Virus record (IMG/VR): IMGVR_UViG_3300002098_000043 | Location: 1 to 55,616 of that record | Reading direction: 5' to 3' (one strand) | Source: a virus | Taxonomy: Duplodnaviria > Caudoviricetes | DNA length: 55,616 nucleotides | Shown: one piece after another, positions 1-55,616 of the stretch | Layout of the letters: the number at the start of each line of letters is the position of its first letter | Position numbering within the stretch: position 1 is the first letter of the stretch | The notes under the pieces: model-generated | The model's database searches: none | Told to the model about the DNA's origin: nothing | Seen by the model: only the letters and a program-made list of their open reading frames with translations | Program-made: the position numbers and the translations under genes

Positions 1-101
1 TGGGAATAATATTAGGACTAACTATTGGATACAATATAGCGAAACGAAAATTTAAACAACCAATTAAATAGAACAACATGGACAATAAGGAAATAGAGAA
101 A
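1..101 (+). repeat. Left copy of perfect 101-bp inverted repeat at window ends
   Basis: 1-101 is the exact reverse complement of 55516-55616; contains the start MDNKEIEK shared by ORFs 78..641 and 55096..55539. Confidence 0.97.
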
Positions 102-641
102 TCGCCCAAAAAAGTTATTAAAGAGCTTTATCACTTTGAAATAACAGACGATAATGAGTCCGATGATTGTGATTTGGATTGGACAGATGTATTGGATTTA
201 ATGAACCAATTTGCTTTCCAATTTTTAAAACAACAAACCCCCGTATCCATCCCCACTAAGTCCCCCTCATTAGTAAGTGAGATTGATTTAGAAGCTATGG
301 CTTTAAAAAAGTATCCTGTCGATATTCAAATGAAAGACGCGGGAGGCGCAACTGAAGATGTCAATCGAAGTGATAGATTTACTTATAAACAAGGACTTCG
401 TGATGCGTTCTCCACTCTTCTAGTAAAGGAAGGAGAGAAGGATTCTGAGGATTGGATTTCTGTTTCTGAAAAATTGCCCGAAAATGAAGGGGAGTATGTT
501 TTGGTTGCAAATAAAAACGGAATACATTATTCTATTCATATTTATAGAAACAAATTATGGTATGGTTATGGAAATGCCTATCATACAAATGAAATAACCC
601 ACTGGATGCCATTACCATCCCCTCCAAAAACTGAAAACTAA
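78..641 (+). CDS. Mosaic phage protein with C-terminal DUF551-like domain
   Basis: WISVSEKLP...VLV...THWMPLPSPP signature typical of DUF551. Confidence 0.75.
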   Translation: MDNKEIEKSPKKVIKELYHFEITDDNESDDCDLDWTDVLDLMNQFAFQFLKQQTPVSIPTKSPSLVSEIDLEAMALKKYPVDIQMKDAGGATEDVNRSDRFTYKQGLRDAFSTLLVKEGEKDSEDWISVSEKLPENEGEYVLVANKNGIHYSIHIYRNKLWYGYGNAYHTNEITHWMPLPSPPKTEN

Positions 642-652
642 AAATCTAAGAA

Positions 653-832
653 ATGATGAGTAAGGAGATAAGAAATGAAATTTTACAATCGAGTTATTGG
701 GAACATTTTAAAGCAGCGAAAGACTTAGCTCTTATATTGCCTTTAAACCATCCAAAGAGGATAAAAATAGAAAACGAAGTAAACAAATTGTCACAATCAC
801 TAACCATCCCTACTAAGGGAGTAAACAAATAA
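653..832 (+). CDS. Small hypothetical protein (59 aa, MMSKEIRNEILQSSYWEHFK...), not in ORF track
   Basis: Open frame ATG 653 to TAA 832 fills the gap between co-oriented genes. Confidence 0.65.
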   Translation: MMSKEIRNEILQSSYWEHFKAAKDLALILPLNHPKRIKIENEVNKLSQSLTIPTKGVNK

Positions 833-837
833 AGGAT

Positions 838-1044
838 ATGAGGATAGAAGAAATAAAAAAACAAATGTCTGAATACAGGGATTTTTACGGAGGTGATTTA
901 CTTGTATTTGATGAAATTGAAAAAGCAAAAACAAAAAAAGAATTGTCAAAAATAATAGATAGGCATTCTAGTAGATTAGAAGATATGCTGTCGGACGCCC
1001 ATTCTCATTTAGATAATTTTAAAAAAAAACTTGGATTAAAATAA
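838..1044 (+). CDS. Hypothetical protein
   Basis: Compact ORF starting at the end of a conserved homology block (aaggatATG). Confidence 0.7.
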   Translation: MRIEEIKKQMSEYRDFYGGDLLVFDEIEKAKTKKELSKIIDRHSSRLEDMLSDAHSHLDNFKKKLGLK

Positions 1045-1062
1045 TTAAAACACCCAAATAAG

Positions 1063-1701
1063 ATGAGCAACAAAAACAAGATATTAACAGAAGAGGACTA
1101 TGTAAAAGAATTTGTTGAACTGAATGGATTAGGCGCAACTGAAACAACGGGCATTATGAGTTTAAAACATTTTGAACAAATGCTCAGAGAATTTTCAGCC
1201 CTCAAAAACAAAGAACTATCTACCTCCCTCCAAGAAAAAGAAAAGGAGATACAGGAATACCACCAAAACAGCGTAACAAAAGGAACATATCTTGAGCTTG
1301 AGAAAGAATATTTTAATTGCTTAAAACTTCTTGAAAAAGAAATTGATAAACGAGTTGATTTGGAGGAGGAAATAGAAGAACTGAAAGGGGACAGAGATAG
1401 GCAGGGTGTGTTGATTTCTGATTTAAAAAATGCCATACCTCCGTTCAGAGTTGGTAAAAAACAAAAGAGAACAATACTTGATTCAACTGGACATGAGCTA
1501 GGTATTTTTACAACAGGACAAGAAAAAATCGCCCAACTGTTCTGCGATTTTTTAAACACAAACAACCAAAAAACATTAACCTCAGAATTGGAAGTAAAGA
1601 AGGGGGAGGGAGAAATACCTATTTGTGAAACGTGTGATGTAAAAGTATTACAAGAGGGCGGTTGTAAATGCGTTAAATGTGGTATGGTTTATCCTTTTTA
1701 A
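1063..1701 (+). CDS. Mosaic coiled-coil protein with C-terminal Cys zinc-finger
   Basis: Shares NKELSTSLQEKEKEI, EIEELK and ELExKKGEGE with 54014..54607; CxxC...CxxC tail. Confidence 0.75.
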   Translation: MSNKNKILTEEDYVKEFVELNGLGATETTGIMSLKHFEQMLREFSALKNKELSTSLQEKEKEIQEYHQNSVTKGTYLELEKEYFNCLKLLEKEIDKRVDLEEEIEELKGDRDRQGVLISDLKNAIPPFRVGKKQKRTILDSTGHELGIFTTGQEKIAQLFCDFLNTNNQKTLTSELEVKKGEGEIPICETCDVKVLQEGGCKCVKCGMVYPF

Positions 1702-2542: not shown

Positions 2543-3151
2543 TTAATTACACCCACATCCATTAGAACATATATCATTAGCTTTATTTAAAGCCGCTACT
2601 GCATTATCTGAATTACCTACATCCGCCGAAAAATTCGCGGCTAATAGATAACTATAAGCCCTCATTGCATTTAACCAACTTTTTTCAGAGCATCCGCAAT
2701 TGGGATCAATTTTTTGAAACATTTTTGATATGCAGCAACATGTTGAACAATTAACTAATGTTTCAATAGTACCTGTATATGAAAAACCACTTCCGTTTAC
2801 TGTATAAGTTATATCATAAACACCATCATTAATCGTTGGGATTGTTACGTTTGTATAAGTTGCAGCTAAATCAAAACTTGTTAAAGGAAATACTGTTGAA
2901 GATAATTGAGAATAAATATCAACTGCCGTTGCGCCGTTAACCGATACTGCACATGCAGTTATTACATTAGATATGATTGTAAATGTGTATATAACTGTTG
3001 AACTAGTCGTAGCATAATTTATATTTATAATAGCTTGCGTTACTTGTGATGAAGTTATAGCGCTTCCTGTATAGACAGTAGCATCTGTGAATAACAATGT
3101 TGTACAACTATTGTTTGTAACTACTTGTGGTGTAATATTTGGTGCGGACAT
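2543..3151 (-). CDS. Putative crAss-like tail hub protein
   Basis: Beta-rich N-terminus, DGVY motif, Cys-rich helical C-terminus ending GCGCN, as recalled for crAss-like hub proteins. Confidence 0.5.
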   Translation of the reverse strand: MSAPNITPQVVTNNSCTTLLFTDATVYTGSAITSSQVTQAIININYATTSSTVIYTFTIISNVITACAVSVNGATAVDIYSQLSSTVFPLTSFDLAATYTNVTIPTINDGVYDITYTVNGSGFSYTGTIETLVNCSTCCCISKMFQKIDPNCGCSEKSWLNAMRAYSYLLAANFSADVGNSDNAVAALNKANDICSNGCGCN

Positions 3152-3898: not shown

Positions 3899-3930
3899 TA
3901 CTTATACTACAAAGATAAGTAAAAGGTTTC
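3899..3930 (-). promoter_or_regulatory. Promoter: TATCTTTG (-7) overlapping GAAACC-N16-AGTATAA ECF-like motif
   Basis: caaagata at 3910-3917; same layout as 48711-48741. Confidence 0.55.
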
Positions 3931-3931
3931 A

Positions 3932-6900
3932 TTATTCAATAACTTTTTCAATAATATCTATTGATTTCTTGGCTGGTAATAATTTACGAATGTCTTTTAA
4001 CAGATTCTTTTGCTTTTCACCTTCTAAATCTGATATATCCCCCACTATATCCACGAATTTCTCTAAAGTACCCATCGCCGCAACTGGACGCTTAACCATG
4101 AATTTAAGCTGATCTGTATCGAATATAAATAACAAGTTGCCTAAGGCGTTTTCTGCGTCTAAAGCAGTTTTCTTTTTCTTATCGTCGTCGCCTTGATTAG
4201 CCAGTGACCAAAACAATACAACAGTCATAGCCCCTTTAAGGTTACTCATAAAGTTTTTGTTATTGTATAACACCTTTAGTTTTTCAGGAGTTGAATTCGC
4301 TTCTTTAAGTTCAGATTTTAAATCTTTATACGCATCTCCGAACATTTCACGCCACGATCCGCGTTTGGTCTTACCATCACGGGTAATATATTCAGAACCA
4401 TAACGTTCAGCCCACCAATCCAACGCCCATAAGCGAAATTGAAGCCCGACCTTACCAGCTTCATTGTTTTGAATATTACGTTGGTCTTTATCACTATACT
4501 TACCTTGAATATCCGATACTCTATTTTTATAACCAATTAAACGGTTCTTGAGTGCTTTTTCATCCACGCCTTCCTTAACAACTAATTCATCCACGCCGTG
4601 TTCATTCTTTTTATACTCAAAGCTGTTATAATCTTCATCAGTCATTAATCCTAAGAACAGCGACCCTTGAATCTGAAACTCACCATAACGAGTTAAGGCA
4701 TGCCCTAATTCTGAGAATAATTGTCCTGCATAAAGTTTAGGATTAGAACTATAATCAACTGATACTACATCGTATTTACGCAAAATATCCATAGCGTAAG
4801 GATTGATTAATCCGCCACCATAATTACGATCAACTTTATGTTTTCCTAATTCTCCAAACAAACGTTTATGACCTATACCAACTGTTTTGCCATTCTCAGC
4901 ACGCCAGTTATTGTACACTCCGATTGCTAAGTTCATAATACCCGCAGGAACGTTAAATAACATAGTTGTTGAAGATGTCATAAAGCGTAAAAACCTCAAC
5001 ATTAAATCTATTTCAGGTAATATTTGTTTAGGATTTTTAAACAAGTGTAAATCTTTCCATTCTTTAACATATTTAACAACGTTTGGTTTAGCTAAATGTT
5101 CACCATATCCTTTATCGTTTAAATGCTCTATTGCATTAATTATAGGTACAAGTTTGCTATAATGCTTAACGTGTGTCATATCATCTATAAACTCAATTCC
5201 AGCCCTATAAAAATCTTTACTATATCCCCTATCCTTATCGCGTGGTTTATCAAATTTACTTGACAGCACCCCTTTATTATCTACTGAATATTGGCTGTTA
5301 TTTTTAACCAATAATGGGTTTTCCTTTTCATCAACGTTAACACCCTTCTTTAATTGAAGTCTTGCCTGACGATTATATTTAAGTAACAGCGCTAACGATT
5401 TAACTTTACTAACCGCATCTTTTTTGCCATATTCAACAATATTATTCTCAATATCCCCAAATGGCATTACTGATTCAATTTTTGTGTCTGGGTCTTTGAA
5501 TTTAATTCTAACCTGTTTTAAGTTATAATTAGTTCCTAAAAAATTACTAAATGCTTGAGTTATTCCATTTTGTTTATAAGCTTCTCTAAATGAAGGATCA
5601 GTTTTAAGAACTTGTAATGGCATATTGTAAATATCCCCATCCACCAAATTTTTATGTTCTGCGATTAATTCACGATAGAACTTTAAAAAATTAATTTGCG
5701 CTTCACTCAATCCATTATTTTCAGCTTCCTCAACGGTTAACATTTCACCTTTTCCATTATCAATCCAATCAAAATATTTAGCACTGTCTTTAAACGCTAA
5801 TGCCTTTCCTTTTTCTACAATATCCAATCCCTTGTTAAGTTCTTTTATGACAACAGTTCCTAATTTCTCAAAGGTATTTTTCTTTTCTTTTGCATCTGCA
5901 ACTTTATCAAAACTTGCTTCATCAAACATTTTACCAAAAGCCTGTAATTCAGGAACTTTTTCAGTCATGTGACCTAAGTTCTTTACCCAAACATCTTTTG
6001 CTGAAATATCTGCCTTATTAGCTATTTCTTCAATAAATTTCTCGTTCTTGCTCAATTCTCCTTTTTGATTTCTAAATATAGCATAACCAAGTTTACTCAT
6101 AATATTAGACTCAACTGTTTTACGCGCCGCTTCTTGAAAAGCATTTACAACATTATACAATTCAATCATACCATCAATATACTCTTGTTCGGTTATTTTA
6201 CCATTAGTAGCTTTATTTTCTAATTCGCGGATGTCTTCATCTAAAGTAGCTGCCCACTTCATATCTTCTCTATATTCAAACCAAGCTCTTAAATCCTGTT
6301 TCTTTTTATTTTCTAAAACCTGTTTAAGTTTTTCAATTTCATTAATTTCTTCTTCCGTTAAATCAGTATTTTCTAATGCTTGATTTACCCTATTTAAATT
6401 TTCAGCTTCTGCTACAATATCACGTTTTAAAACTTCTCTTGCGTATTGCTCAAAATTCAAAGTCAGTTTTTTAATCTGTTGTTCTTTAGATAATTCTTCA
6501 AATTTCTTATGTAATTGTTCATCCTGAATATTAAATTCATCAGTTTTTAAATTAATTCCCCACACTATTTGCTTCGCTAAGCTCTTAGCAATATTTTCAT
6601 CTATCCCAAATAATTGTTTTAGTCTGTTGAAAATATATTCAAGATATTTCATAAAGACATTTTTTTCACTCTCTTTATCAAATATCCCTTCGCCTTCTCT
6701 ACCAATAGCCTCAGCCAATACTTCATATCCTAAATTTTGTTCATTTAATTCAGGATAACGCTCTTTAGTAATGCTCCATAATTCAGTTCCTTTTAACTGC
6801 TTAATGGCATTAGCAATCACTTTATTATTCATTCCTCCCAACACATCAATAAGAATATGTCCTGCTTCATGTATAGGAGTATCAATTCCCGCAAAATAAG

Positions 6901-15023: not shown

Positions 15024-15641
15024 TTAATTTTTCACAATTCTATTCCCACAAAGCTCACTCGTACAATAGCCGCCTTTATAAGAAATATGAACCCCGTGTG
15101 CCCTGTCTAACGGAATCAACATGGCTGCATTATGTAACGGTTCATCTTTTAATAAATTAAAAGCAGTTAAAGAAGCTGTTTCAGACATATTTTCAATGGT
15201 CCCATGTACCCATGCTCCCCATGAACAATTTTCACTTGTGCCAAATGTTTTTGTGTCACAAACGTAATCCATTCTGTCCTTAGTTTCTTCTCCAGTAAAA
15301 TGAGCTGTATTTCTAATTTCAGCGTGCATTAAATGAGTTTTATTATAACTCATCCACATATTATGATTCATTGCCATAATATAAAGTGTATCACTCCATC
15401 TTAACTCACAAATACCTTTAGATTTTCTGTATTCATTAAGCTTTTTATGAAACTTCTTAGCTGTTAATAATTCAAGTCTTGAAACAGAGTCTGTTCGGTT
15501 CATTATAATTGGAATATCCCACACTTTATACACCTGTCCAGTACATTTTGAAGCAATTAATAAAAAAGCTATTGAAAACAATAACACAATTATAATTGTT
15601 CTTCCATCACGCTTAGGGTCTTTTTGCAAGTCTAAATACAT
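15024..15641 (-). CDS. Secreted/membrane-anchored CAP (SCP) domain protein
   Basis: N-terminal hydrophobic helix; LNEYRK..G..L.W..L..A.NH..M...H...R...EN...PLH..AM pattern of CAP domains. Confidence 0.75.
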   Translation of the reverse strand: MYLDLQKDPKRDGRTIIIVLLFSIAFLLIASKCTGQVYKVWDIPIIMNRTDSVSRLELLTAKKFHKKLNEYRKSKGICELRWSDTLYIMAMNHNMWMSYNKTHLMHAEIRNTAHFTGEETKDRMDYVCDTKTFGTSENCSWGAWVHGTIENMSETASLTAFNLLKDEPLHNAAMLIPLDRAHGVHISYKGGYCTSELCGNRIVKN

Positions 15642-15659
15642 AAGTTTTTATTTTTAAAG

Positions 15660-16532
15660 TTAAACATTTATTGATTTATTTAGAATTATTTCAAACAAAT
15701 TATCTGTTTTTCTGTAATTATACCTAAAACAAAATTCATTAATATAATTAGCCAAATATCGTCCTGAAATTTGATGAAACTGTCCATAAATACCTCTTTT
15801 TAATATTGCCCAAAATCCTTCAATACTATTTGTATAGAATCCATTTTTAGAAAATATACCTTGTTGATGATTAACTACTTTGTGTTTATATTCATCCTCT
15901 AAACCTTTATAACCGCCAAATCCATCAGTAACAATTGTAGACCCTTTTAAAATATATCCTTTTATAAACGGGTGTAAAGATTCTTGCGAAGGCGTTTCGC
16001 TCATTATAAAACAAGCCACTTTTCCGCCTTGTTCCAACATTCCTAATATTGGTGTTTTATTTACATATCCCCGTCCTTTTTTATTATGAATATCCCGTTG
16101 CCATTTATGTTGATTAGAAACATCTGGACCATGAAAATATTCATCCATTTGAACAATTCCACTTAAATAATCTATTTTTTCAATAAAAGCTTTACGAATT
16201 CTCATAAGCATAAACCAAGCTGTGTTTTTATTTATTTTAAGTTCTCTTGATAACTGCATAGCGCTAATGCCTTTTTTAGCATTAACCACTGTAGAAATAG
16301 CTAAAAACCACTTTCTAAGATCACATTTAGTATTGTGAAATATGGTATTAATGGTTACACTAAATGTTTTATTACAAGAATTACAATGATGCCGTAATTC
16401 TTTTTTCGCGGATGAAATTTTAACTGATTGACAATAAGGGCATATAGGCTTATTATTCCAACGAATCTTCTCTAAATACTTAATACAGTGTTTTTCTGTT
16501 TTAAAAGTTTCATATATTTGCAGTATATTCAT
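15660..16532 (-). CDS. IS1595-family (ISXO2-like) DDE transposase, intact
   Basis: Zn ribbon CPYC...CNSC, HTH, DEYF, TDGFGGY, NSIEGFW..LKR, YINEFCFRYN motifs. Confidence 0.93.
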   Translation of the reverse strand: MNILQIYETFKTEKHCIKYLEKIRWNNKPICPYCQSVKISSAKKELRHHCNSCNKTFSVTINTIFHNTKCDLRKWFLAISTVVNAKKGISAMQLSRELKINKNTAWFMLMRIRKAFIEKIDYLSGIVQMDEYFHGPDVSNQHKWQRDIHNKKGRGYVNKTPILGMLEQGGKVACFIMSETPSQESLHPFIKGYILKGSTIVTDGFGGYKGLEDEYKHKVVNHQQGIFSKNGFYTNSIEGFWAILKRGIYGQFHQISGRYLANYINEFCFRYNYRKTDNLFEIILNKSINV

Positions 16533-16550
16533 TTGTTATCGGTTTTATAG

Positions 16551-16578
16551 TATAACGAATGAGTATTAAAAAGGTTAC
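16551..16578 (-). promoter_or_regulatory. ECF-sigma-like promoter GTAACC-N15-CGTTATA upstream of transposase
   Basis: Same motif at 48711-48741, 49798-49826 and 3899-3930. Confidence 0.5.
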
Positions 16579-16697
16579 TAAATTTTATAACTTTTAACTA
16601 TTTTAACAAATATGGGAACTTCCCACCTACAGGTAGAGACTGAAGCTAAATTTATTGATTTTGCGGGCTCATGCTTGAAATAGTGGAAGGCTTATGA

Positions 16698-16934
16698 TTG
16701 GAATTTGAGAAAGATTCACTAGGTCGAAAAATAACAACAGGTAAATTTATTTATTCTTTAAGCAAAGAATTAGAGGCTAAGTTAAATGAAGTATTAGAAA
16801 CTCATTATAAATCCTCTCCATTTACCATAAATGAAATTAGATTTAAAGTTCATACTGATGAATCTGGTAAATTAATATCTACTGCAAGTGTTGATGTTGG
16901 ATTAATTGGTTATGATCCAAAGAAAAAAGACTAA
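16698..16934 (+). CDS. Cassette hypothetical protein (start uncertain)
   Basis: TTG start directly preceded by in-frame TGA; in-frame ATG at 16671. Confidence 0.45.
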   Translation: MEFEKDSLGRKITTGKFIYSLSKELEAKLNEVLETHYKSSPFTINEIRFKVHTDESGKLISTASVDVGLIGYDPKKKD

Positions 16935-17161
16935 ACACATTTCTTAAATGAAGACTCAAATACATTTAAAAGCATCTTTTGTTCAAAGCCAAATTCATCA
17001 TCTTCAAATTTTACATATATTTCCAATATACCATCTACAATTTCAGAAACAACATCAATAACATTTCTTTTTTCAAAATGATTACCAATAATATTTTCAT
17101 AACAACCTTTAAGTTCTTGCTTCTTAATAAAAACTGTTTTTATTATTTCTTGATCTTTCAT
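16931..17161 (-). CDS. Cassette hypothetical protein
   Basis: TATATTTA box 4 nt before the ATG; converges on upstream ORF. Confidence 0.6.
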   Translation of the reverse strand: MKDQEIIKTVFIKKQELKGCYENIIGNHFEKRNVIDVVSEIVDGILEIYVKFEDDEFGFEQKMLLNVFESSFKKCV

Positions 17162-17180
17162 ACACTAAATATACTAAACA

Positions 17181-17375
17181 ATGAAAAATAAGCACCTACA
17201 GGTAGAGAATAACCAATTAATTTCTGATAATAAAGAACTTAAAAAGCTTTACAATGAATTTATTTCTAAATGTAAGGAGTTTGATTTAAAATACGGGTCG
17301 GTGGATACAGCAAAGAAAATGATGGAATTTAAAGGTAAATGTGTTCTATTAATAGATAGGTCTATTATTAAATAG
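17181..17375 (+). CDS. Cassette hypothetical protein whose N-terminus (HLQVE) is encoded by the repeat site
   Basis: aaacaATG context; cacctacaggtagaga in codons 5-10. Confidence 0.55.
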   Translation: MKNKHLQVENNQLISDNKELKKLYNEFISKCKEFDLKYGSVDTAKKMMEFKGKCVLLIDRSIIK

Positions 17376-18003
17376 TTTTTTGATACTTTTTGCTAAAATC
17401 CTCCAATGATATAAAATTATAATCATCATCGTCCCTTAATTCTATAAAATATACATTATATTTTAGTGCGGGATGAGACAAAGCGTAACTTTCATAATGG
17501 TCAATCATATCCATGTCAATTGCATTAACTAATCCCATTACTGGTAATACTATAACTCTTTCTATATAAATAGGTTCGTTTTCGTTTAAAAACAAAACCT
17601 CTGTTTCTTCATGTTTTATGTATTTATCAAGTAACTCTAAAGCCTCTATATTTTTCATACCATAAAAATAGGCTTTTTTTTCCTTTTCTAGCTCTTTAAG
17701 TTCCTTACTATACTTTATACTAAGACTTTTTATAAGATTTTCTCGCTCTGCTTTTGTTTTATCCACCACAACTCCTACCATATTCTCCTTCTCATACTTA
17801 TATTCTTCAAATTCTCTTTTTAAAAGCAAATGTTCAATGGATAAATCATGTAATCTGTTTTCTTTTTCTAATAATTCCTTTTGACGATAAGCTTTTCTTT
17901 CAAACACAGCAAAAATTATTTGAATTAACTTATATAATAAAAATCCACCTACTATTAAAACTATCCCTCCTATATTCCCACTTAAAACAAACAACATTGT
18001 CAA
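17368..18003 (-). CDS. Membrane-anchored coiled-coil protein
   Basis: N-terminal TM segment followed by E/K-rich helix. Confidence 0.7.
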   Translation of the reverse strand: MTMLFVLSGNIGGIVLIVGGFLLYKLIQIIFAVFERKAYRQKELLEKENRLHDLSIEHLLLKREFEEYKYEKENMVGVVVDKTKAERENLIKSLSIKYSKELKELEKEKKAYFYGMKNIEALELLDKYIKHEETEVLFLNENEPIYIERVIVLPVMGLVNAIDMDMIDHYESYALSHPALKYNVYFIELRDDDDYNFISLEDFSKKYQKTI

Positions 18004-18013
18004 TGTTTTTAAT

Positions 18014-18604
18014 TTATTTTTCTACTTTTTCGGGATGAGTTATTACATTATTTTTATAAAGTCCATTTAATGCTTTGTTAAAAAATTTAATAGTTAATGG
18101 TCTTGCGCGTTTACTATAAAGCCCATCAGAAAATACTTTTCCATTAATCTTTACAAATGGATTGTCTTTACCTATATCGTATAAAAACATCGTAAAAAAC
18201 ATATTTACCATATTGCCACCGCCTGAAAATATCATTGTATTTCCAATGTTATAAGCGCTAAATGAATTATTAGAAATTGGCGCGTTAACCGACTGAATAT
18301 CTACAACAGCCATCATATCGATTTGCTTCTCTTTTAAGACCTTTTCTATTTCTTCTGAAGAATATTGCCGTATGGCTGGAAATAATGAATTATAACTAAT
18401 GGTATTATATCCCCGATTAGTTAATATTTCAATAATAGCATCATTAACGCGCCCATCCGCATTAGTTTTAAATAAGATATTTTTATAGATTTTTGCCGTA
18501 TGCGTAGGATCAGCTTCCATATAAATATCATTCGCGAGTTTTGTTTGAGAATGGTTAACTAACCAAATAAACATTAGTAATAAAACACAATGTATTTTAT
18601 TCAT
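18014..18604 (-). CDS. Secreted/periplasmic hypothetical protein
   Basis: Signal-peptide-like N-terminus ending ...NHSQ. Confidence 0.7.
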   Translation of the reverse strand: MNKIHCVLLLMFIWLVNHSQTKLANDIYMEADPTHTAKIYKNILFKTNADGRVNDAIIEILTNRGYNTISYNSLFPAIRQYSSEEIEKVLKEKQIDMMAVVDIQSVNAPISNNSFSAYNIGNTMIFSGGGNMVNMFFTMFLYDIGKDNPFVKINGKVFSDGLYSKRARPLTIKFFNKALNGLYKNNVITHPEKVEK

Positions 18605-18850
18605 TTTGACAGGTTTTTATGTCACTAATGTTCCGAATGGACGTTATTAAATAATCAGGCGTGGAACATTTAGAATACTTGTTGCCGAGGTGTTTCGAAT
18701 ACCCACAAATCAAATAAACTAAAGTCCACGCCCTTTTCTGGCGCAAGACGCATAGCTAGTTGTGATCTGTGTGGTTGGAATTTTTCGAAACTTTCGGCAA
18801 CCAAGCAAAACTAACGCTTGCAATTTTATACCAATAACTTAAGTATCAAT
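18605..18850 (-). ncRNA. Structured 5' leader / cis-regulatory RNA
   Basis: Long stem 18678-18699 / 18784-18805; alternative pairing 18658-18667 / 18724-18732; TATATTTG promoter at 18852-18859. Confidence 0.55.
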
Positions 18851-18941
18851 ACAAATATAGTCAAAAAGTTATTGTTTCTTGAAACCTTTTTATAGGGGAA
18901 AACACCCTATTCCTATCTGTTAAATTGGGTATATTTAATGT

Positions 18942-19181
18942 ATGAATGAAACGTTAGCAAATAGACTAGTTGGAATATTGAAAAAGTCCGACTTAATAGG
19001 AAAAAGTTTTTACAATAAATCTCAAATGGATGAAAAAACAATTAGTGACTTTGAAACAAGCCAAAAAGCAAATTCAGAAGAATGGGCTATTTATGTTATT
19101 TGTGGTGAAGAAATTGAATTGGGAAATATTCCAAGAATAGAGTTAAATGTTTTATTTTCTACTTATTCCGAACTTTCGTAG
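18942..19181 (+). CDS. Cassette hypothetical protein
   Basis: TATATTTA box just before ATG. Confidence 0.6.
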   Translation: MNETLANRLVGILKKSDLIGKSFYNKSQMDEKTISDFETSQKANSEEWAIYVICGEEIELGNIPRIELNVLFSTYSELS

Positions 19182-19398
19182 GCTCTATAAGCAAATAACT
19201 TATATCATTTACTATTGTTACTTTAATGTGACGTTCTGATAAAAATCCTGTTTCAACTTTCATATAAATAGCAGGATATTTATATTTAGCTGTTTTATAA
19301 TATTTAGATAAAACCTTGTTAAGGTCTTTTTCAAGTTTATCCTTAATGCTTTTAATCTCTTTAGCTGGAACTCTATTTGGATTTAATTCTTTTGCCAA
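19159..19398 (-). CDS. Cassette basic hypothetical protein
   Basis: TTG start; converges on 18942..19181. Confidence 0.5.
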   Translation of the reverse strand: MAKELNPNRVPAKEIKSIKDKLEKDLNKVLSKYYKTAKYKYPAIYMKVETGFLSERHIKVTIVNDISYLLIEPTKVRNK

Positions 19399-19518
19399 TT
19401 TGAGCGGAACTCTTAACCATTCTTTAAATAATGATTATTTTCACTACCTGTAGCTAAGAAGTTCCCAATTTTCATAAACAAATATAATCAATAAAAATAT
19501 TCATCCGAAAAATTTTTG

Positions 19519-22500: not shown

Positions 22501-23979
22501 AGTAACTAACCATCTTGTTGCGTGTTCTATGCCGCCAACGGTTGCAGGATTAGCACCAATAGTTGGATTAATGCCTGTTCCTCCTTGACCAAACTGCATA
22601 ACGTTAGAACAAGAACCAGCGCTTGAATCGTTGTCTGCTGGCATTTGATATATATAATCACTCAAAGCAATTGTTGAAATATCAAAACTTGAAAATTCCT
22701 GTCTTTCAACAATATTTGCAATTACATTATAATTCTTATTAGTAGTAATTGTTTTACACTTCCGTATAGTAGTCGTAAATAACGTTATATCATCAATAGT
22801 AAGTGTTCCTAAATTTACATTTCCAAAATCTTCTAAAGTCATTGTTGTTCCTGTAATAGAAGTAGAAACAACTATTGCTATTGAATAAGGGATTTCTTCT
22901 TGTTGGTCAAATTCAACACAAGCAAGTTCGATTACATCATAAGTAGTATCAATATTATCAATACTTAACTGAACTGATTTACCACTATTCACTATTGTTG
23001 TAAGTGAACCAGCGCCGACATAATTATGCTCTGTGCTTATTAATGGTAATGGACTTTGGTCTTTACCTACATGAACTGGAAACATTCCATAACTCCACGA
23101 TGTTTGAAATCCTCCACTAGAAGATTTTAAACGATAGAAATACATACTATTACCGCAATTCTTACTTCCTGCTCCGAATCCCGTGAATTTAATATTTCCT
23201 AAATTAGAATCTGGAGTCCAAGATAAAAGTGAAATATCATAATATTTAATCACTAACGTATCTGAGGTAAGTGGAGTAAAATTAGCATTAACAGCTGTAA
23301 AAATTGTTCCTGTACCTAGTCCATAACCATAATCAATACCATTATGAGTAGCCGCTCCACTAACAACCATATATTCAACTCCAACTGATAAAGCATTATC
23401 GTCAATATAAGTTGTATAAATTGAATTAGCTGTATCTAAAACTCTCGGTTCATTAAAATCATCTGTCCAATAAACTCTCTGTACATTATCATTCTCAGGA
23501 AAAGCAAATCCTTCAATCTTATACATCTGCGAAAAATTCAAATCTTTATGAGTATATAAAGGAACATACCCATTAAATGTCATTGTGGCGTAATTAGTTG
23601 TAATTGTTTGTGGATCATATTCTATACTTTCACCAATATTAGTCAAAAATAAAACGCCAATTCTGCCATATCCACCACCTGAACTATCAATATAAGTATC
23701 AAATACAATTAATTTATTAGGAAATGAAATAAAAGCTATTGACAAAGGTGGTACGCCATAAACTATCGGTCCAGTTGAATCAATCGGTCTTGGCAATGTG
23801 AAAATCACTCTATTTCCATAAGTATCTTTTAAGGTAAAATTATTACCATCACTATTAATAATTTGAAAATTCCTTGCGTCCCTATAAGTTCCTTGTGGTT
23901 GGTCATAAGGCGAAGTATCTTTAAACATTCCTTCGCCAAATGTATTTATATGGGTAAAAATATTATCGCCTTGTTCCAT
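19519..23979 (-). CDS. Tail muzzle / stabilisation protein (crAss Tstab, P22 gp10-like)
   Basis: 1486 aa; NTFGEGMFKD..P..QP..TYRDARN N-terminus, VYWTD..NEPR, YRFGI.F, DSFRVF motifs; follows ring gene. Confidence 0.75.
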   Translation of the reverse strand: MEQGDNIFTHINTFGEGMFKDTSPYDQPQGTYRDARNFQIINSDGNNFTLKDTYGNRVIFTLPRPIDSTGPIVYGVPPLSIAFISFPNKLIVFDTYIDSSGGGYGRIGVLFLTNIGESIEYDPQTITTNYATMTFNGYVPLYTHKDLNFSQMYKIEGFAFPENDNVQRVYWTDDFNEPRVLDTANSIYTTYIDDNALSVGVEYMVVSGAATHNGIDYGYGLGTGTIFTAVNANFTPLTSDTLVIKYYDISLLSWTPDSNLGNIKFTGFGAGSKNCGNSMYFYRLKSSSGGFQTSWSYGMFPVHVGKDQSPLPLISTEHNYVGAGSLTTIVNSGKSVQLSIDNIDTTYDVIELACVEFDQQEEIPYSIAIVVSTSITGTTMTLEDFGNVNLGTLTIDDITLFTTTIRKCKTITTNKNYNVIANIVERQEFSSFDISTIALSDYIYQMPADNDSSAGSCSNVMQFGQGGTGINPTIGANPATVGGIEHATRWLVTVGTAEYPTGSGTFYNVGDVFIGNNALAGYKNWAQHTVGAQIRPCVSLNQYNPQNNTNQRKNNVEMTVDNGWDYRNPAVASMAKGYWSNEKYRFGILFYDKKRNPFYVRWIGDHSFNSIYTKNGLLIDKGTTSNWFCLQPNLINISGLQIPEEIYTQIDGFSIVRAERDPVIISQGLCWQTQEVGAGPTAVLPLPQLKLATGNGHANNANHIYSYMCPDDLVSETFTRSKFMNVGDTMRVVGWLNGLAYSGGALYKQYSNPSNEWASKLYTHVNATNITYNNESTVTNYARMNEADSVVNFMPNVDVYNDFSYTGAVTDNIDFTCVGGGVSSVGQVGYVGGKKIMVRTLTDFNNYNQAQSYSDLTGANGTNPYKALVNYIIPNANQYGGTGASALAATTYISTGHYQKIDSTVIADNLTVIGGKNFLVFDNIQIGGGDCFTCIIDQGYGLFNVNYLGGMTFAPATNSPSGYAVLFPCECNSNYNLRRGRKTSDFGMQNDTQGVTYNGGAGANLGLEDYSYNNGYSSEGNAFKYPALPVNINFAGRFPVRIRWAGQKIIGEPIDSFRVFLTNDYRDVNGQYGEINNVRPKGDYVFYWQQLAVGSVPILERVIESGSTGSVTTLGTGGVINRFDLITNKFGNQHQHGLTDTTDGWIWFDMHNKDVCVMSLNGSIAEITVPTGVKSYFSEVFLERLTLYFGGTYLNSQTFDISSDRPLIGTGIVGVYDSKNKMSYLTFKFRSWYQNGPDPSVMFNYLDYQVLAKDFTIGFSHVLNKFVGFFDKTPALWHNHNQSVLSANNPKNADIYYASDMVCPTFAKTGMVIGNVEGEFIFLADETINAYPLVNDPNLQQINAPNEIYIENEEAPYSLTLNGYQYDKFYGKIVNNDITFVVNPKTQQGFATDYSVDIGNNENFTDFYYSNQTQNAQDNNVKSWNRNYQIVDEGLYHNQPIATNGKVSGMYTIVRYFKKNWTTDPTVLVKGIKLLQRVISYFKLKF

Positions 23980-44851: not shown

Positions 44852-45598
44852 TTAAAACGCTTCATCCGCGAAATTTTTTGCAGTCATTAACTCTTGTATT
44901 TTCGGCTTTAAATGCGATAATAATAGCTTTATATCATTTTTGAGGTACGGGCAATACACCTTATGATGTTCTTTTGAAATAGGGTTTATAATGTGTATAA
45001 ATAACTCATTACACTTCTTTCCTGTCAGTTTTTCAAAGTGATAAGCATAAAGCGACAACTGGAATGAAATTTTTACAAACTTAGTTGCTGGTAAATGATT
45101 AAATGGTTCTAAAAGCCATCCTCGCCTTATATATAAATCATCTTTTTCAAACACTTTAAAATCACTAAGTCCAAACGCCGAATCTTTACGATGTGTAAAT
45201 AAAAATAATCTATCTAATGTCCCCGCTGTTTTGCTGTCCTCATCAAAAACAATCATCTGCGAAATGTTTTTAGCGTATTTCTTATACTCATCCGAAACAC
45301 TCAATATGATATCCTTTATATCTGCATTCTCATCACTAACAAGTCCCGTTTCATTAAACAACGTAATAGCATCGTCAATTCTTGTTCCGTTATCGCGTTT
45401 ATCCTCCCATTCGTTTAGAACATCTAAAGTTTCACATCCGCGGGATTTTGCTGTCTGCTTTGCTATAAATTCTTTATCAAATGGTTTACTTATTAATTCA
45501 AACAATTTAGTAAACCCCATATACTCATTACCAGACTTATCAAAATAACGATGCTCATCAGTAATGCTTACTTTTTCTTCGAATATCCCGTGTGGCAT
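44852..45598 (-). CDS. PD-(D/E)XK exonuclease (Cas4/RecB-like)
   Basis: GT.ID, AGTLD, SDFK and QLSLY motifs. Confidence 0.8.
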   Translation of the reverse strand: MPHGIFEEKVSITDEHRYFDKSGNEYMGFTKLFELISKPFDKEFIAKQTAKSRGCETLDVLNEWEDKRDNGTRIDDAITLFNETGLVSDENADIKDIILSVSDEYKKYAKNISQMIVFDEDSKTAGTLDRLFLFTHRKDSAFGLSDFKVFEKDDLYIRRGWLLEPFNHLPATKFVKISFQLSLYAYHFEKLTGKKCNELFIHIINPISKEHHKVYCPYLKNDIKLLLSHLKPKIQELMTAKNFADEAF

Positions 45599-45603
45599 AG
45601 GCT

Positions 45604-46026: not shown

Positions 46027-46029
46027 AAA

Positions 46030-46761
46030 TTATTTTTTAAGCATTATTACTTCCTTTTCAGGCTCGATTGTAAAGGTTTCTTCTTTAAATTCATCCGCGC
46101 CATTTTCGCTAATTTCTTCATCGTTTTGAGCTATATCAGACACATTAATAACAACGCTTCCCATCGCCTCTAAAATCTTGGTTAATTCGGATTTCTGGTC
46201 TTCCTGAGACATTTGTTTAATGCGCTCTATCTGGTCTTCATCCACATCTTTTTTACGTTCATACCAGCGGATTAAAGCTTCCTCATCGGACACCATACAA
46301 TTTCCAGAAAGATACACCATAACTTCCGCTACAAGTTCTTTAATGATTAACTGCACTGCATCAAAGTCGTCGTATCCGTCCTCCGACTCGATTTTAGGAG
46401 TCTTTAGCTTAACTTCCTTATTCCCGCTTAAAATCGTACTTGATCCTTCCAAAATAAAACCACTTCCTTCCTGTCCTTCGCTTGTGGTATCAATTACAAT
46501 CTGTAAAACACTCATTTCTGTTTCGGATATCAAAAAATCTTTCATTGCTTTATCCTCATCCCCGCGTAAAACTTTACAAAGGCTAAGCATAAAGGGTCTT
46601 AGTTCCTTAAACTTCTTTTCTAATGCTAAGTGAATTGGATTTTTCTTCTTTTCTGTTACTTCTACATTAAAGAGTCTTCCTTTTTTTTCTTCTTGCTTTA
46701 AATACGTGATTTGACATCCGCCAAATCCATTCGCGACTAATTTTACTTTTTTCAGTTTCAT
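46030..46761 (-). CDS. Hypothetical protein with acidic tail
   Basis: Long ORF in operon. Confidence 0.7.
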   Translation of the reverse strand: MKLKKVKLVANGFGGCQITYLKQEEKKGRLFNVEVTEKKKNPIHLALEKKFKELRPFMLSLCKVLRGDEDKAMKDFLISETEMSVLQIVIDTTSEGQEGSGFILEGSSTILSGNKEVKLKTPKIESEDGYDDFDAVQLIIKELVAEVMVYLSGNCMVSDEEALIRWYERKKDVDEDQIERIKQMSQEDQKSELTKILEAMGSVVINVSDIAQNDEEISENGADEFKEETFTIEPEKEVIMLKK

Positions 46762-48283: not shown

Positions 48284-48285
48284 AT

Positions 48286-48459: not shown

Positions 48460-48538
48460 TTATTATCAGATTTACAAATATAACAATTTTCCCGTCCGCC
48501 GACAAATTCAATACGTATTCTCACTTATTCATATCATA

Positions 48539-53039: not shown

Positions 53040-53183
53040 ATGGACACGAATTCTAAACTTATACAGGCATTAAAACAAAAGAACGCCGATCTGATTAAAA
53101 TTGCCGCTGCAATTAAATCAGATAAAGATACCCCTGATTGGATTAAATGGTACATCGAAAAAGAATTGAAGGATATTAAATAA
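53040..53183 (+). CDS. Small hypothetical protein (47 aa, MDTNSKLIQ...)
   Basis: Converges on methyltransferase. Confidence 0.5.
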   Translation: MDTNSKLIQALKQKNADLIKIAAAIKSDKDTPDWIKWYIEKELKDIK

Positions 53184-53670
53184 TACTTAACTGATTTGTT
53201 TTTTCTTTTTCAATTCTTATGTAAACTGTATCCTTATTTACATGATGCCCTTCGAATACAACAATCATTGAATCGTGCATTGGATTATCATCAGCTTGCT
53301 CTCCTTTTGTATTTATGCCCTCAAACCTTACGCGCCCTTTAATATATCTTATTTCTCTTGCATGAGGTAAAATTATGTTATGAAACATAGCAGTACTTGT
53401 GCTGGACGGCAATAATAAAACGCAAATTTTTCCTTTTTTAGATTCCTCTAGCGCTTTTTTAACAAAAGCCTCTTTTAGTTTTCGTGAATATGGGGGATTA
53501 ACAAAATTAGACATTCCCCACTCTTTTAACAATCCATTATTTTTGGTAGTAATTGGTCCGATATTTAAAGGACACGGGTCTAAATCAAAATTAAACTCAG
53601 CATTTAACTTATCATATAACCATTTTGGGGTGGACCAGTTATCGTGATGTTCTATATTTCTATTTTTCAT
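53176..53670 (-). CDS. Phage DNA N6-adenine methyltransferase (Dam-like)
   Basis: W.TP..L...L..EF.F.LDPC, FVNPPYS, GR.RF motifs. Confidence 0.88.
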   Translation of the reverse strand: MKNRNIEHHDNWSTPKWLYDKLNAEFNFDLDPCPLNIGPITTKNNGLLKEWGMSNFVNPPYSRKLKEAFVKKALEESKKGKICVLLLPSSTSTAMFHNIILPHAREIRYIKGRVRFEGINTKGEQADDNPMHDSMIVVFEGHHVNKDTVYIRIEKEKTNQLSII

Positions 53671-54017
53671 CTTTGTATCTTAAAACAAACTTGTCCCACA
53701 TTCTCCCAATTACAGATAGAAGGGTGAAAGGTTATGGTTTGTGAGTTTCTTGTTATTATTCCTCCTTTTTCTAATCTTCCTAAGGCCATGCTAATACTAC
53801 CAGTAGGGATACTGGTTTGTTTCTCTATCCATCCACGAGTATGATAATCTAAGGTGATAGAATTAGCCCCGTCCGCTAGCATAAGAAGTGAATTAAGAAG
53901 ATTTGCTTCAGTGGGAGAGGTAATGTTATGGTTGATGTATAGAATAGCTCTTAAAGCTTCTAATGGCTTTATTTCAAAAGACCTGCGGATTAATTTATTT
54001 TCGGTTATTTCCATCAT
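53667..54017 (-). CDS. Winged-helix DNA-binding protein
   Basis: T.TEA.LL, SIS.AL.RLEK.G.I pattern. Confidence 0.55.
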   Translation of the reverse strand: MMEITENKLIRRSFEIKPLEALRAILYINHNITSPTEANLLNSLLMLADGANSITLDYHTRGWIEKQTSIPTGSISMALGRLEKGGIITRNSQTITFHPSICNWENVGQVCFKIQR

Positions 54018-54607
54018 TCTCCCTCCCCCTTCTTTCCTTCCAATTCTGCTGATGTTTCTGTGGTTTGGTTTAAAAGATTATTACTGATATCAACAGAACC
54101 AGTTATAGCTTCTTTCATTTGATTATAAGAACTTAAATTTACTGTTCCGCATAATTCATTGATTTGTTTTATCCCATCCTCTAATTCTTTTATTCTATCG
54201 CAAGATTTTTTAGCAACATCAAGCAAAGATTCTTGAAGCCTATCTCTCTCCTCTTTCAGTTCTTCTATTTCCTGCTCAAGCTTTGAAATTTTAAGTTGTT
54301 GAACCGCAATTAACCTACCATCAGAAGTAGATAATTCATTAAGCTTTATAATTTCCTTTATTGCAGAGGCGAGGTCGGATTGTAGTTGTTCATTTCTTTC
54401 TGTCCATCGTTTTACGTGCAATCTGTCAATAACTTTACATTGTTCAATTTCCTTTTCTTTTTCTTGGAGGGAGGTAGATAGTTCTTTGTTTTGGAGAATT
54501 AAATCTTCAATTACTGATTCAACAGTTTTATAAAGCAAGGTGTTTTCTTTGATTCCGTACTTTTCAAAAAGTTCTTTTACTTCTGATATCTTGTTTTCGT
54601 TGGTCAT
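54014..54607 (-). CDS. Mosaic coiled-coil protein paralogous to 1063..1701
   Basis: Three shared peptide/DNA blocks. Confidence 0.75.
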   Translation of the reverse strand: MTNENKISEVKELFEKYGIKENTLLYKTVESVIEDLILQNKELSTSLQEKEKEIEQCKVIDRLHVKRWTERNEQLQSDLASAIKEIIKLNELSTSDGRLIAVQQLKISKLEQEIEELKEERDRLQESLLDVAKKSCDRIKELEDGIKQINELCGTVNLSSYNQMKEAITGSVDISNNLLNQTTETSAELEGKKGEGE

Positions 54608-54661
54608 GGTATTATGATAAAATAATTGTGAATAATGCCGTTAATGTCTTGTTTTCGTTTG

Positions 54662-54907
54662 TCATCTTATTTGGGGTTTTAATTTATCAAAACTTTGCAC
54701 ATAATAATTATCGGGCAAAAACATCATAGTGTGTTCCTTTTTACTTTTTTCTTCAATGGAACTTAGTTCTCCGGTTTTTATACAGATAATGTCTCTGCGC
54801 CTCCTTTTTCCTTTCCAAAAATTGTTGCGAAACTTTTCGCCAATTTTTAAAGAATTGAACAAAATAGCTTCATACTTACTTTCCGAAAAATGATTCCAAT
54901 ATGCCAT
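54662..54907 (-). CDS. Hypothetical protein
   Basis: Starts at end of homology block 3. Confidence 0.65.
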   Translation of the reverse strand: MAYWNHFSESKYEAILFNSLKIGEKFRNNFWKGKRRRRDIICIKTGELSSIEEKSKKEHTMMFLPDNYYVQSFDKLKPQIR

Positions 54908-54941: not shown

Positions 54942-55103
54942 TTAATTAATTAGATTGCGTTTAAGTTCTCTAGCCATTTCTAAAGATACATAGTGTTGCA
55001 TTTCTTTTTTCTTGTTGCCTATTTTTCGCATTTTCTTAATTTCACTTTTATTAAATCGGATTATTTTATCTAAATGCTTTTCTTCATTATATTTCTTACT
55101 CAT
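54942..55103 (-). CDS. Small basic protein (53 aa, MSKKYNEEKH...), not in ORF track
   Basis: Mirror position to 653..832. Confidence 0.6.
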   Translation of the reverse strand: MSKKYNEEKHLDKIIRFNKSEIKKMRKIGNKKKEMQHYVSLEMARELKRNLIN

Positions 55104-55539
55104 CTTTCTTAGATTTTTGGTTTTCAGTTTTAAAAATTATTCCTGCTTTTTTTATGTTATTGTAATAACTTTTCATCCAACTCTCCGAATTAGGGTATTT
55201 GTATGTATTATCTCGTATAACTTCTAATTTTTTAACCAAATCAAAAAAATCATCAGAACCCTCAGAGGATACTTTAGAGCGCATCCATTTAGCTCCTGAT
55301 CTAAACGAATTAGAAGGGCCACAATGTTTATTAATGCCTTCAGATTTCCATCTAAACGCTTCTTTGTTTATCTCCTCATCACTAATTGCTCCTTCTGATA
55401 TTGGGAGGGATTCGTCGAATAGCCTCACAATTTCGCTTGATGCGTTTTTTATAGCGTTTTCTTTTTCGTGAGGCGTTTGTGATTTTTGAAATCCGCTAAT
55501 AGCTCTCTTTATTATTTTCTCTATTTCCTTATTGTCCAT
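55096..55539 (-). CDS. Mosaic protein sharing N-terminus with 78..641
   Basis: MDNKEIEK start; KTEN near C-terminus. Confidence 0.75.
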   Translation of the reverse strand: MDNKEIEKIIKRAISGFQKSQTPHEKENAIKNASSEIVRLFDESLPISEGAISDEEINKEAFRWKSEGINKHCGPSNSFRSGAKWMRSKVSSEGSDDFFDLVKKLEVIRDNTYKYPNSESWMKSYYNNIKKAGIIFKTENQKSKKDE

Positions 55540-55616
55540 GTTGTTCTATTTAATTGGTTGTTTAAATTTTCGTTTCGCTATATTGTATCCAATAGTTAGT
55601 CCTAATATTATTCCCA
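55516..55616 (-). repeat. Right copy of perfect 101-bp inverted repeat
   Basis: Reverse complement of 1-101. Confidence 0.97.

Follow-up and report, generated by a model that had tools for sequence, protein, structure and literature searches.

Inverted accessory-gene arrays in an unfinished crAss-like phage genome, with cassettes probably exchanged at conserved gene junctions

Introduction

The viral record IMGVR_UViG_3300002098_000043 begins and ends with arrays of small genes that read towards each other and share short, nearly identical blocks, which raises the question of whether the two arrays form a system that shuffles genes. The whole IMG/VR record, 55,616 nt in length, was analysed and is referred to here as the window. 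An earlier interpretation made from the letters of the window (the sequence-only reading) had proposed that crossover at any of the blocks would invert the interior and create new combinations of genes and domains, in the manner of a shufflon. The evidence gathered here leads to a different answer. The window is probably an unfinished assembly that holds about three quarters of a freshwater crAss-like phage genome. This genome would have an inverted repeat in its interior, and homologous recombination at conserved junctions would have exchanged the cassettes of two accessory-gene arrays. The record would then give an unusually clean view of accessory-gene turnover in crAss-like phages, in which small genes are replaced between near-identical junctions.

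Two inverted arrays linked by seven blocks

Each arm of the window carries four small genes that read inward, in two separate transcription units. The genes of the arms are as follows:

Left gene 1, 78..641, + strand: 187 aa; C-terminal DUF551 domain (PF04448, 1.5e-14); PHROG 924
Left gene 2, 653..832, + strand: 59 aa; no known family; last 10 codons inside block 3
Left gene 3, 838..1044, + strand: 68 aa; no known family
Left gene 4, 1063..1701, + strand: 212 aa; coiled-coil, with a C-terminal CxxC...CxxC tail; blocks 5-7 in frame
Right gene 1, 55096..55539, - strand: 147 aa; only the first 8 residues and the C-terminal KTEN are common with left gene 1
Right gene 2, 54942..55103, - strand: 53 aa; unrelated to left gene 2
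Right gene 3, 54662..54907, - strand: 81 aa; unrelated to left gene 3
Stub open reading frame (ORF), 54612..54665, - strand: 17 codons (MTNENKTLT...); read as a recombination scar
Right gene 4, 54014..54607, - strand: 197 aa; coiled-coil homolog of left gene 4; ends within block 7

A repeat search and a blastn-short comparison of the first 3 kb with the reverse complement of the last 3 kb recovered the seven block pairs listed by the sequence-only reading at the same positions, collinear and inverted. They link window positions 1-1614 with 54017-55616, with identities of 89-100% and E values from 3e-54 to 5e-7:

Block 1, 1-101 (+) and 55516-55616 (-): 101/101 identical, E 3.4e-54
Block 2, 627-664 (+) and 55095-55131 (-): 38 aligned columns at 94.7% identity, including one indel, E 1.9e-9; takes in the end of gene 1, its stop and the start of gene 2
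Block 3, 801-840 (+) and 54905-54944 (-): 39/40, E 2.1e-15; coding on the left, intergenic on the right, terminating in the start codon of gene 3
Block 4, 1043-1088 (+) and 54640-54684 (-): 89.1% of 46, E 4.7e-7; stop of gene 3 and codons 1-9 of gene 4
Block 5, 1201-1247 (+) and 54450-54496 (-): 46/47; E 1.4e-19 for the exact core, 1205-1247; lies in frame within gene 4 (NKELSTSLQEKEKEI); a 43-nt shared node in the assemblies, at about double depth
Block 6, 1363-1402 (+) and 54238-54277 (-): 37/40, with 94.4% over 1367-1402, E 1.2e-10; in frame in gene 4
Block 7, 1583-1614 (+) and 54017-54048 (-): 31/32, E 1.2e-10; interior of gene 4 on the left, C-terminus and stop of gene 4 on the right

The two arms have 173 12-mers in common, against at most 8 in 200 shuffles, which excludes chance. 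When the whole window was scanned with up to 25% mismatches allowed, each block was found at its two arm positions only; the partner of block 2 escapes this substitution-only scan owing to its indel. Between the blocks the nucleotide similarity is absent, as had been stated previously, and the MAFFT alignment of these stretches amounts to noise. The change from near-identity to no similarity is abrupt, occurs at gene borders and encloses unrelated genes, as is found in mosaic joints. Indeed, no relationship between the left and right members of gene pairs 1, 2 and 3 was detected by BLASTP. The gene 4 pair is homologous, with 46% identity over the N-terminal 65 aa.

Blocks 1-4 share a common layout, in that they run from the end of a gene through its stop codon and a short A-rich spacer to the start of the following gene and its first few codons. 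The previous description of these four blocks as spanning stop/start junctions holds, with a correction for block 3, where the left copy takes in the last 10 codons of gene 2 and the right copy is intergenic, with right gene 2 stopping at the first three bases of the block. Since only the left copy of block 3 is coding, selection on the protein cannot explain its identity. Block 4 is found in tandem in the right arm, at 54640-54687 with a partial second copy at 54573-54613, and this has given rise to the stub ORF. Blocks 5-7 had been described as lying in frame inside ORFs, which is the case in left gene 4, whereas in the right arm block 7 is the very end of gene 4. A 25-residue piece of left gene 4 (residues ~125-150) reappears at the beginning of P0002, a 128-aa protein from another assembly that is unrelated in the remainder, and this partial match is the only one, besides itself, that left gene 4 has among 5.8 billion proteins. 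Taken together, the status of block 3, the tandem block 4 and the piece shared with P0002 suggest that the blocks are recombination joints and not conserved protein segments.

The exchange of genes and domains that had been predicted at the blocks is best read as the exchange of whole genes, and of parts of gene 4, at such joints. Nonetheless, swaps at blocks 1-4 leave the gene content unchanged, given that they only move genes between the arms, and only gene 4 could give rise to new proteins.

Linkage of the two arms on one molecule

The sequence is carried by four freshwater runs (X1-X4), three of them its possible source. For all four the evidence consists of Logan contigs (k = 31). These drop rare variants and come from a re-assembly that is independent of the IMG/VR assembly. 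In X1 and X2, a single contig of 53,262 nt corresponds to window positions 1218-54479, and so joins the inner halves of both arms. An origin of the two arms in different co-assembled genomes does not hold in view of this contig. The junction of left gene 4 with the tail module and that of right gene 4 with the winged-helix-like gene that follows it are each covered by contigs in all four runs.

The assembly graph breaks exactly at the shared exact runs, with left pieces at 72-837 and 811-1234 and right counterparts of 638 nt and of similar length. In X2 the depths are 37.2 and 32.5 for the left pieces, 35.8 and 35.8 for the right ones, 39.4 for the main contig and 69.6 for the block 5 node. 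The arm contigs have 0.6-1.2 times the depth of the main contig in X1-X3, the values being noisier outside X2, and in the shallowest run, X4, one left-arm stretch drops to ~0.35 times the main depth. The ratio of the block 5 node to the summed depth of the arms is 1.22, 1.02 and 1.15 in X1, X2 and X3, respectively. Such depths are those expected if each arm is present once per genome.

Ends of the record and genome status

IMG/VR labels the record "inverted terminal repeats" (ITR) and yet rates its completeness at 73%, which for 55,616 nt gives an expected genome of ~76 kb. The repeat behind this label, here called S, comprises:

Repeat S, left copy, 1..101, + strand: innermost 101 nt of an inverted repeat that is exact over 188 nt or more
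Repeat S, right copy, 55516..55616, - strand: identical, inverted
Content of S: end of ORF X (3-71, 22 codons and stop, ...GIILGLTIGYNIAKRKFKQPIK*), a 6-nt spacer and codons 1-8 of left gene 1

A contig of 188 nt is present in all four runs, with the same length in each, after which it ends at a branch or dead end. Its bases 88-188 cover window positions 1-101, and it extends 87 nt beyond window base 1. The 101-nt "ITR" is for this reason the inward-facing portion of a repeat whose copies match exactly over 188 nt or more, and the ends of the window are not the ends of the molecule. The presence of 101 nt of the repeat at each end of the record is explained by the fact that a word-based assembler stops at a repeat longer than its word. 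ORF X enters from outside the window, which means that the window ends cut a gene; its 22 residues gave nothing significant in a low-stringency tblastn against the fetched loci of relatives.

The window belongs to a crAss-like phage, as shown by the presence of the TerL, portal, major head, muzzle and tail ring protein families. PHROG matches were obtained for TerL (4.3e-66), portal (1e-50) and major head protein (1.1e-16), and Pfam matches for crAss_MUZ (2.5e-74), CrAss_Ring_1 (1.2e-6) and CrAss_Ring_2 (2.9e-9). The kinship with described phages is distant, given that the top tblastn matches of TerL are crAss-like and Flavobacterium phages with 23-27% identity. A TerL profile retrieved 80 related IMG/VR loci, with identities of at most 57% to the TerL of the window. 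Two of the relatives, G006 (76,304 nt) and G007 (77,625 nt), are 100% complete and end in direct repeats, 99 nt long in the former and 121 nt in the latter. Besides these two, three relatives are rated 91-97% complete; G008 is at 97% and has a direct end overlap of 179 nt, while G010 is at 91% and G011 at 83%. The end structure of the relatives and the genome size of the clade are both at odds with the window being a complete linear genome with ITR.

The arms had been taken to stand at the two ends of the genome. The completeness of 73%, the extension of 87 nt in all four runs and the direct repeats and large additional module of the relatives indicate that they probably do not. The inference from "ITR" to "complete" is probably wrong for this record, which would lack about a quarter of its genome, and treating it as complete would mislead on genome size, gene content and replication mode. 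This is in line with figures given by the CheckV authors, according to whom only 33.2% of the ITR contigs in IMG/VR are >90% complete (PMC8116208), and with a paper that flags ITR calls from metagenomes as possible artefacts (PMC9610469). In the portions of the literature available to us, no account was found of crAss-like phages with inverted terminal repeats or mirror-image arrays.

The part of the genome that is missing can be placed by comparison with the relatives. Two genes follow the right arm on the same strand:

Winged-helix-like gene, 53667..54017, - strand: 116 aa; weak MarR_2 match; directly downstream of the right arm
Dam-type N6-adenine DNA methyltransferase, 53176..53670, - strand: PF05869, 2.6e-24

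The stop of right gene 4 overlaps the start of the winged-helix-like gene, and the methyltransferase closes the series of recognised genes in the leftward operon to which the right arm belongs. Homologs of the winged-helix-like gene are found in the leftward early operon of the relatives, which makes it a synteny anchor. In G006 and G007, a leftward structural and recombination block is followed by a short rightward block of small genes, then by the leftward early operon with the homolog of 53667-54017, and then by a divergent intergenic region. After this comes a rightward module of ~22 kb, which opens with an array of small genes and stands head-to-head with the last tail genes, including homologs of window 2543-3151. 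From the homolog of 53667-54017 to the end of the rightward module G006 has ~26 kb, with small-gene arrays, an SF2 helicase, a DnaB-like helicase, a tyrosine recombinase and Cpn10. The two ends of the window match the two sides of exactly this stretch, and no homologs of its small-gene arrays, the two helicases, the tyrosine recombinase or Cpn10 were found in the window. The helicases are present in four of the six long relatives (G006-G009). The tyrosine recombinase is present in three (G006, G009 and G011), in G006 inside the module that the window lacks.

Turnover of small genes in the relatives

The relatives show that small genes are mobile in this clade. G006 (L094) has, at 45291-48770, a rightward array of ~15 small genes in which a leader with the consensus AACTAAAAACAAATAAAA stands before seven of the ATGs. 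Within the whole genome this leader, with at most 2 mismatches, directly precedes the ATG of eight genes, of which seven lie within 45.7-48.8 kb. Paralog pairs of the array have in common only their N-termini and last codons (MTPKEK..., MET...). The array is a PeSL-like repeated junction in a crAss-like phage. The leader was not found in the window, where its 11-nt core occurs only in block 3.

G006 and G008 are ~92% identical and collinear, and the 3.4-kb small-gene array of G006 (45.3-48.7 kb) is not in G008. A gene of 59 aa stands in the leftward early operon of G006 (44082-44318), whereas in G008 (reverse strand 23550-23785) it is inverted and is the first gene of the rightward array. Small genes of the clade have thus been gained, lost and passed in inverted orientation across the divergent early region. 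Such inverted passage would create two mirror-image arrays.

The sequence-only reading had suggested searching related phages for the same linkers flanking other modules, and none were found in IMG/VR, JGI, GTDB or the loci of relatives. Exact words from S (32 nt), block 3 (32 nt) and block 5 (20 nt) each gave 0 matches in IMG/VR, and neither the S word in JGI metagenome contigs nor a 26-nt S word in GTDB genomes gave any. The left gene 4 protein had 22 pattern matches in IMG/VR and the alignment of the gene 4 pair had 593 in JGI metagenome contigs, none of them confirmed. Right gene 4 was found in none of five relatives' records, and left-arm DNA gave only chance-level matches of 14-39 nt in G011-G015 (best E 0.0037). 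When DNA and proteins of both arms were compared with 178 loci of relatives (2.3 Mb), no block was matched at E <=0.01, and only the DUF551 domain (one locus) and the winged-helix-like gene (four loci) were. The power of this test is low because the closest relative has only 57% TerL identity, and the absence of the linkers is weak evidence, given that the records nearest the window may fall outside the searches.

Origin of the arrays and alternative explanations

In the explanation that we consider probable, S would lie in the interior of the genome as two inverted copies, identical over 188 nt or more, with an unassembled segment of roughly 2-22 kb between them. This segment would approximate the divergent early control region and the rightward helicase/replication module of the relatives. 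The arms would be two oppositely oriented accessory-gene arrays (X, 1, 2, 3, 4), in two transcription units of one molecule. An array would first have been duplicated in inverted orientation, or transferred, across the early region; single cassettes and parts of gene 4 would then have been replaced by homologous recombination at the conserved junctions, with stop, short A-rich leader, start and first codons as the junction unit. This recombination could use the host RecA or a phage exonuclease pathway, for which there are two candidate genes in the window:

Exonuclease, 44852..45598, - strand: PHROG 298; adjoins TerL across the clade; candidate phage recombination part
243-aa neighbour of the exonuclease, 46030..46761, - strand: conserved; an annealing function is possible

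The Red-like pathway that had been proposed has in its favour this one exonuclease matched in PHROGs; the conserved neighbour, on the other hand, has no significant fold match. For the neighbour no match was found in Pfam or PHROGs, and in a profile search no PDB sequence scored better than E 0.079. With its AlphaFold model, which is confident (pLDDT 79.2), the best PDB folds are Whirly-like nucleic-acid binders, at E 0.028 and TM 0.15-0.21, which is not significant. An annealase role is not claimed for this protein, given that the sequence, profile and fold matches are all not significant.

Several observations weigh against an internal repeat with exchanged arrays. A collinear inverted two-arm set was found in none of the six long relatives that were compared with themselves (G006-G011). 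No relative carries the blocks, so that the conservation of the junctions in the wider phage population is assumed, and the missing segment was not found by means of the S, block 3 and block 5 words. Homologs of the helicases were not found in G010 (91% complete) or G011 (83% complete), which means that the module is not universal and that the size of the missing segment is uncertain, between roughly 2 and 22 kb. Finally, the depth of the S node relative to the summed arms is 0.71, 1.04, 0.67 and 0.59 in X1-X4, while ~1.0 is expected for an internal repeat with two copies; the shortfall would fit coverage that fades toward a physical end 87 nt outside the window, which is possible.

Such an end is what a true linear genome of ~55.8 kb would have, with inverted terminal repeats of 188 bp and early genes reading inward from both ends. 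The terminal arrays would then resemble the gene families found in mirror image at the termini of large linear DNA viruses, and the class given by IMG/VR, the constant length of the 188-nt contig in the four runs and the S depth of 0.59-0.71 of the summed arms in three of them would follow. This explanation is nonetheless unlikely. ORF X enters from outside, and fewer than 160 nt would be left for it and any promoter. Among the scanned ORFs, no polymerase or terminal-protein family was matched in Pfam or PHROGs (one or two libraries each; all 11 ORFs of at least 400 aa with one library each, many small ORFs being outside the scan). The three relatives G006, G007 and G008 have direct terminal repeats, the helicase module of G006-G009 would be lacking, and in X2, which is the deepest run, the S node is at 1.04 of the summed arms.

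It is improbable that the blocks are kept identical by selection on nucleotides, be it for translation initiation and coupling or for protein-binding sites, instead of by recent exchange. In hosts that do not use Shine-Dalgarno sequences, the 10-35 nt before the start and the first codons set the efficiency of initiation, and blocks 1-4 cover precisely this region; the use of one leader before eight genes in G006 is also in line with such selection. It does not account for blocks 5-7, which are internal coding sequence and are identical at synonymous sites too. The four junction blocks differ from one another in sequence, no word of 7 nt or longer is common to all seven blocks, and their pairwise matches are A-rich and at most 10 nt. 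No excess of promoters was found in the arms, where sigma-70-like sites number 7 on the left against 7.2 expected and 7 on the right against 10.8 expected, in a scan that is of the sigma-70 type and does not cover the Bacteroidota-type promoters of the likely host. No stable stem-loop was found in the seven blocks either, with fold z-scores of -1.03 to +0.28 relative to shuffles; the best fold is a 5-bp hairpin in block 3, whose -6.3 kcal/mol equals the shuffle mean. Moreover, an identity of 97-100% over 40-188 nt needs common descent regardless of such selection.

In principle, the segment enclosed by a pair of inverted blocks can be flipped by recombination between the two, and S would be the likeliest site, although there is no sign that this is frequent or favoured by selection. 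There is a slim chance that the phage exists as a standing mixture of isomers, produced by homology-driven flipping, mostly at the 188-nt repeat and less often at the six short blocks, without a site-specific recombinase. The early/replication segment would in that case be flipped via the exonuclease pathway or the host RecA. Cassettes and gene 4 domains would be re-dealt between the leftward and the rightward unit, and hence between expression times or levels, which would amount to a recombinase-free flip-flop diversifier in a crAss-like phage. If such isomers coexist, they would make this abundant environmental phage a straightforward and testable example of genome flipping driven by a repeat.

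The stronger proposal of the sequence-only reading, in which the blocks are actively reused for intramolecular inversion as a selected diversifier, by a Red-like pathway or an unseen recombinase, is decidedly doubtful. With lengths of 32-188 nt, the inverted blocks would suffice for homologous recombination of the phage type, an exonuclease and its conserved neighbour are encoded, and blocks 5-7 are in frame. The assembly broke at the longest repeat, as if both orientations coexist, and between G006 and G008 a cassette has crossed the early region in inverted orientation. The absence of a visible invertase had been pointed out before, and none was indeed found in the scanned ORFs of the window, where the only transposase or recombinase is a DDE transposase of the IS1595 type (15660-16532, Pfam 2.2e-35); the window is, however, an incomplete genome, and the tyrosine recombinase of G006, G009 and G011 may be counted in favour of active shuffling. 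Nevertheless, the seven blocks have no sequence in common, so that a site-specific recombinase would be without an evident target. No arm-switching contig was found among the joints and loose ends of the four runs, in contigs that cannot show minority forms. The loose ends at 590/626 are unrelated contigs of high depth, those at 840 and 1614 are the parental right arm, and those at 848 and 1475 occur in X1 only. The IMG/VR contig is unbroken through every block of up to 47 nt, which indicates that one phase dominates. The arrangement is in none of the six long relatives, the fold match of the 243-aa neighbour is not significant, and the constant gene content under swaps at blocks 1-4 leaves only gene 4 to vary. 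The lack of a common core, of recombinant contigs and of the linkers elsewhere leaves an active shufflon-like diversifier unsupported, as far as contigs, which miss rare recombinants, can tell.

An assembly chimera, in which the arms are alleles of one locus from two co-occurring strains folded onto one contig, could draw on the start of both arms at the same S and on a left/right depth ratio of 1.0-1.56 between runs, and is very improbable given the independent k=31 contig of 53,262 nt that joins the inner arm portions in X1 and X2, the contig-covered junctions of both arms with the interior in four of four runs, the shared nodes at about double depth and the lack of any repeat at 1701-1770 that would cause a misjoin.

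Comparison with known systems

Exchanged cassettes between conserved junctions belong to a kind that is already known from mosaic joints at gene borders and from hyperplastic regions of phages, and it is the geometry that is uncommon, with two inverted copies in one crAss-like genome. The sections of Arbiol et al. (2010, PMC2839356) that deal with PeSL cassettes of T4-type phages describe conserved sequences between small ORFans, from the upstream stop to the downstream start, in hyperplastic regions. They were proposed there to be preferred sites of homologous recombination, at which whole genes are shuffled and dead chimeras avoided, and they form one motif class present ~50 times per genome, with a sigma-70 early promoter and a stem-loop terminator (PMC2839356). 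The likeness lies in blocks 1-4, which span the stop/start of genes without known family, and in the hyperplastic character of the region, as seen in the 3.4-kb indel that separates the matching regions of the ~92% identical relatives G006 and G008. In contrast, each block of the window is a distinct sequence that occurs exactly twice, inverted and once per arm, and three of the blocks are inside coding sequence. The window has neither a promoter excess nor a stable hairpin, which means that the blocks are not promoter-terminator cassettes of the PeSL type. With one leader used eight times, G006 is nearer to the PeSL pattern than the window.

In lambdoid phages, comparisons of the HK97/HK022 type have revealed high-identity linkers at gene borders that flank non-homologous genes and are read as sites of exchange. 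These linkers are shared between different phages, whereas the window holds both copies itself, in inverted orientation, and no second phage with the same linkers was found. The shufflon of the R64 type has one short core site and a dedicated tyrosine recombinase, Rci, and diversifies the C-terminus of one gene. The window resembles it in having several inverted repeats, at which recombination would invert DNA and swap in-frame 3' segments, and differs from it in that the blocks have no shared core, no recombinase turned up in the scanned ORFs and the blocks concern four different genes. Flip-flop isomerisation, as in plastid genomes, the yeast 2-micron plasmid and herpesvirus segments, takes place at uniform inverted repeats of kilobase length, at which assemblies typically break. 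Here too there are two inverted copies in one molecule, and inversion would not change the gene content. In the window, however, only 188 nt are exact, the rest being a mosaic of 32-47-nt islands.

Phages with protein-primed replication and true inverted terminal repeats, of the PRD1 and phi29 types, are mentioned in PMC9610469. As in these phages, the same sequence is found inverted at both ends of the record, with the genes reading inward. The window differs from them in that its repeat extends past the ends of the record, an ORF crosses the end, and the complete relatives have direct repeats; in addition, a protein-primed polymerase was not detected in the scanned ORFs of the window.

Other features of the window and its relatives

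Between the exonuclease and its 243-aa neighbour there is an ORF of 140 aa (45604-46026) that matches PHROG 1238, 'phosphoheptose isomerase', at 8.4e-30. As judged from this match and its position, it is a putative auxiliary gene within the recombination cluster.

Between two tail genes of the window there is a stretch of ~4.5 kb with low GC (27-30%), at 15024-19500, which contains the transposase of the IS1595 type and a CAP-domain protein (15024-15641). At the same position G006 and G007 have one or two small ORFs only. This stretch looks like an inserted island within the structural module.

A common motif of ~33-45 nt (AAAGGTTTCAAGAAACAATAACTTTTTGAC-like) is found at 3921-3953, 18845-18890 and 48733-48777, where it borders leftward gene blocks; these are candidate promoters or terminators. 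The ORF of 557 aa at 31387-33060 contains, at 31900-32837, direct repeats of 51-104 nt with spacings of 312 and 522 nt, which points to a repeated domain in a virion protein.

In G006, a motif of ~26 nt (core TTCAAsTTTGAGTTAA) is present in either orientation around the early operons, at 40813-40838, 43594-43619 and ~45100-45140. One exact inverted pair of this motif brackets a leftward operon of 2.8 kb, and it may be a promoter or operator.

In the 44-kb relatives G001/G002 (L013-L018), TerL is on the strand opposite to the portal gene and is an ORF of 1,053 aa, in which only residues 253-656 of the window TerL are matched. This suggests an insertion, possibly an intein or intron, together with a rearranged order of modules. 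Another relative, the 69-kb G010 (L116), starts with an array of tandem repeats at 1-523, with units offset by ~60 nt and 91-93% identical.

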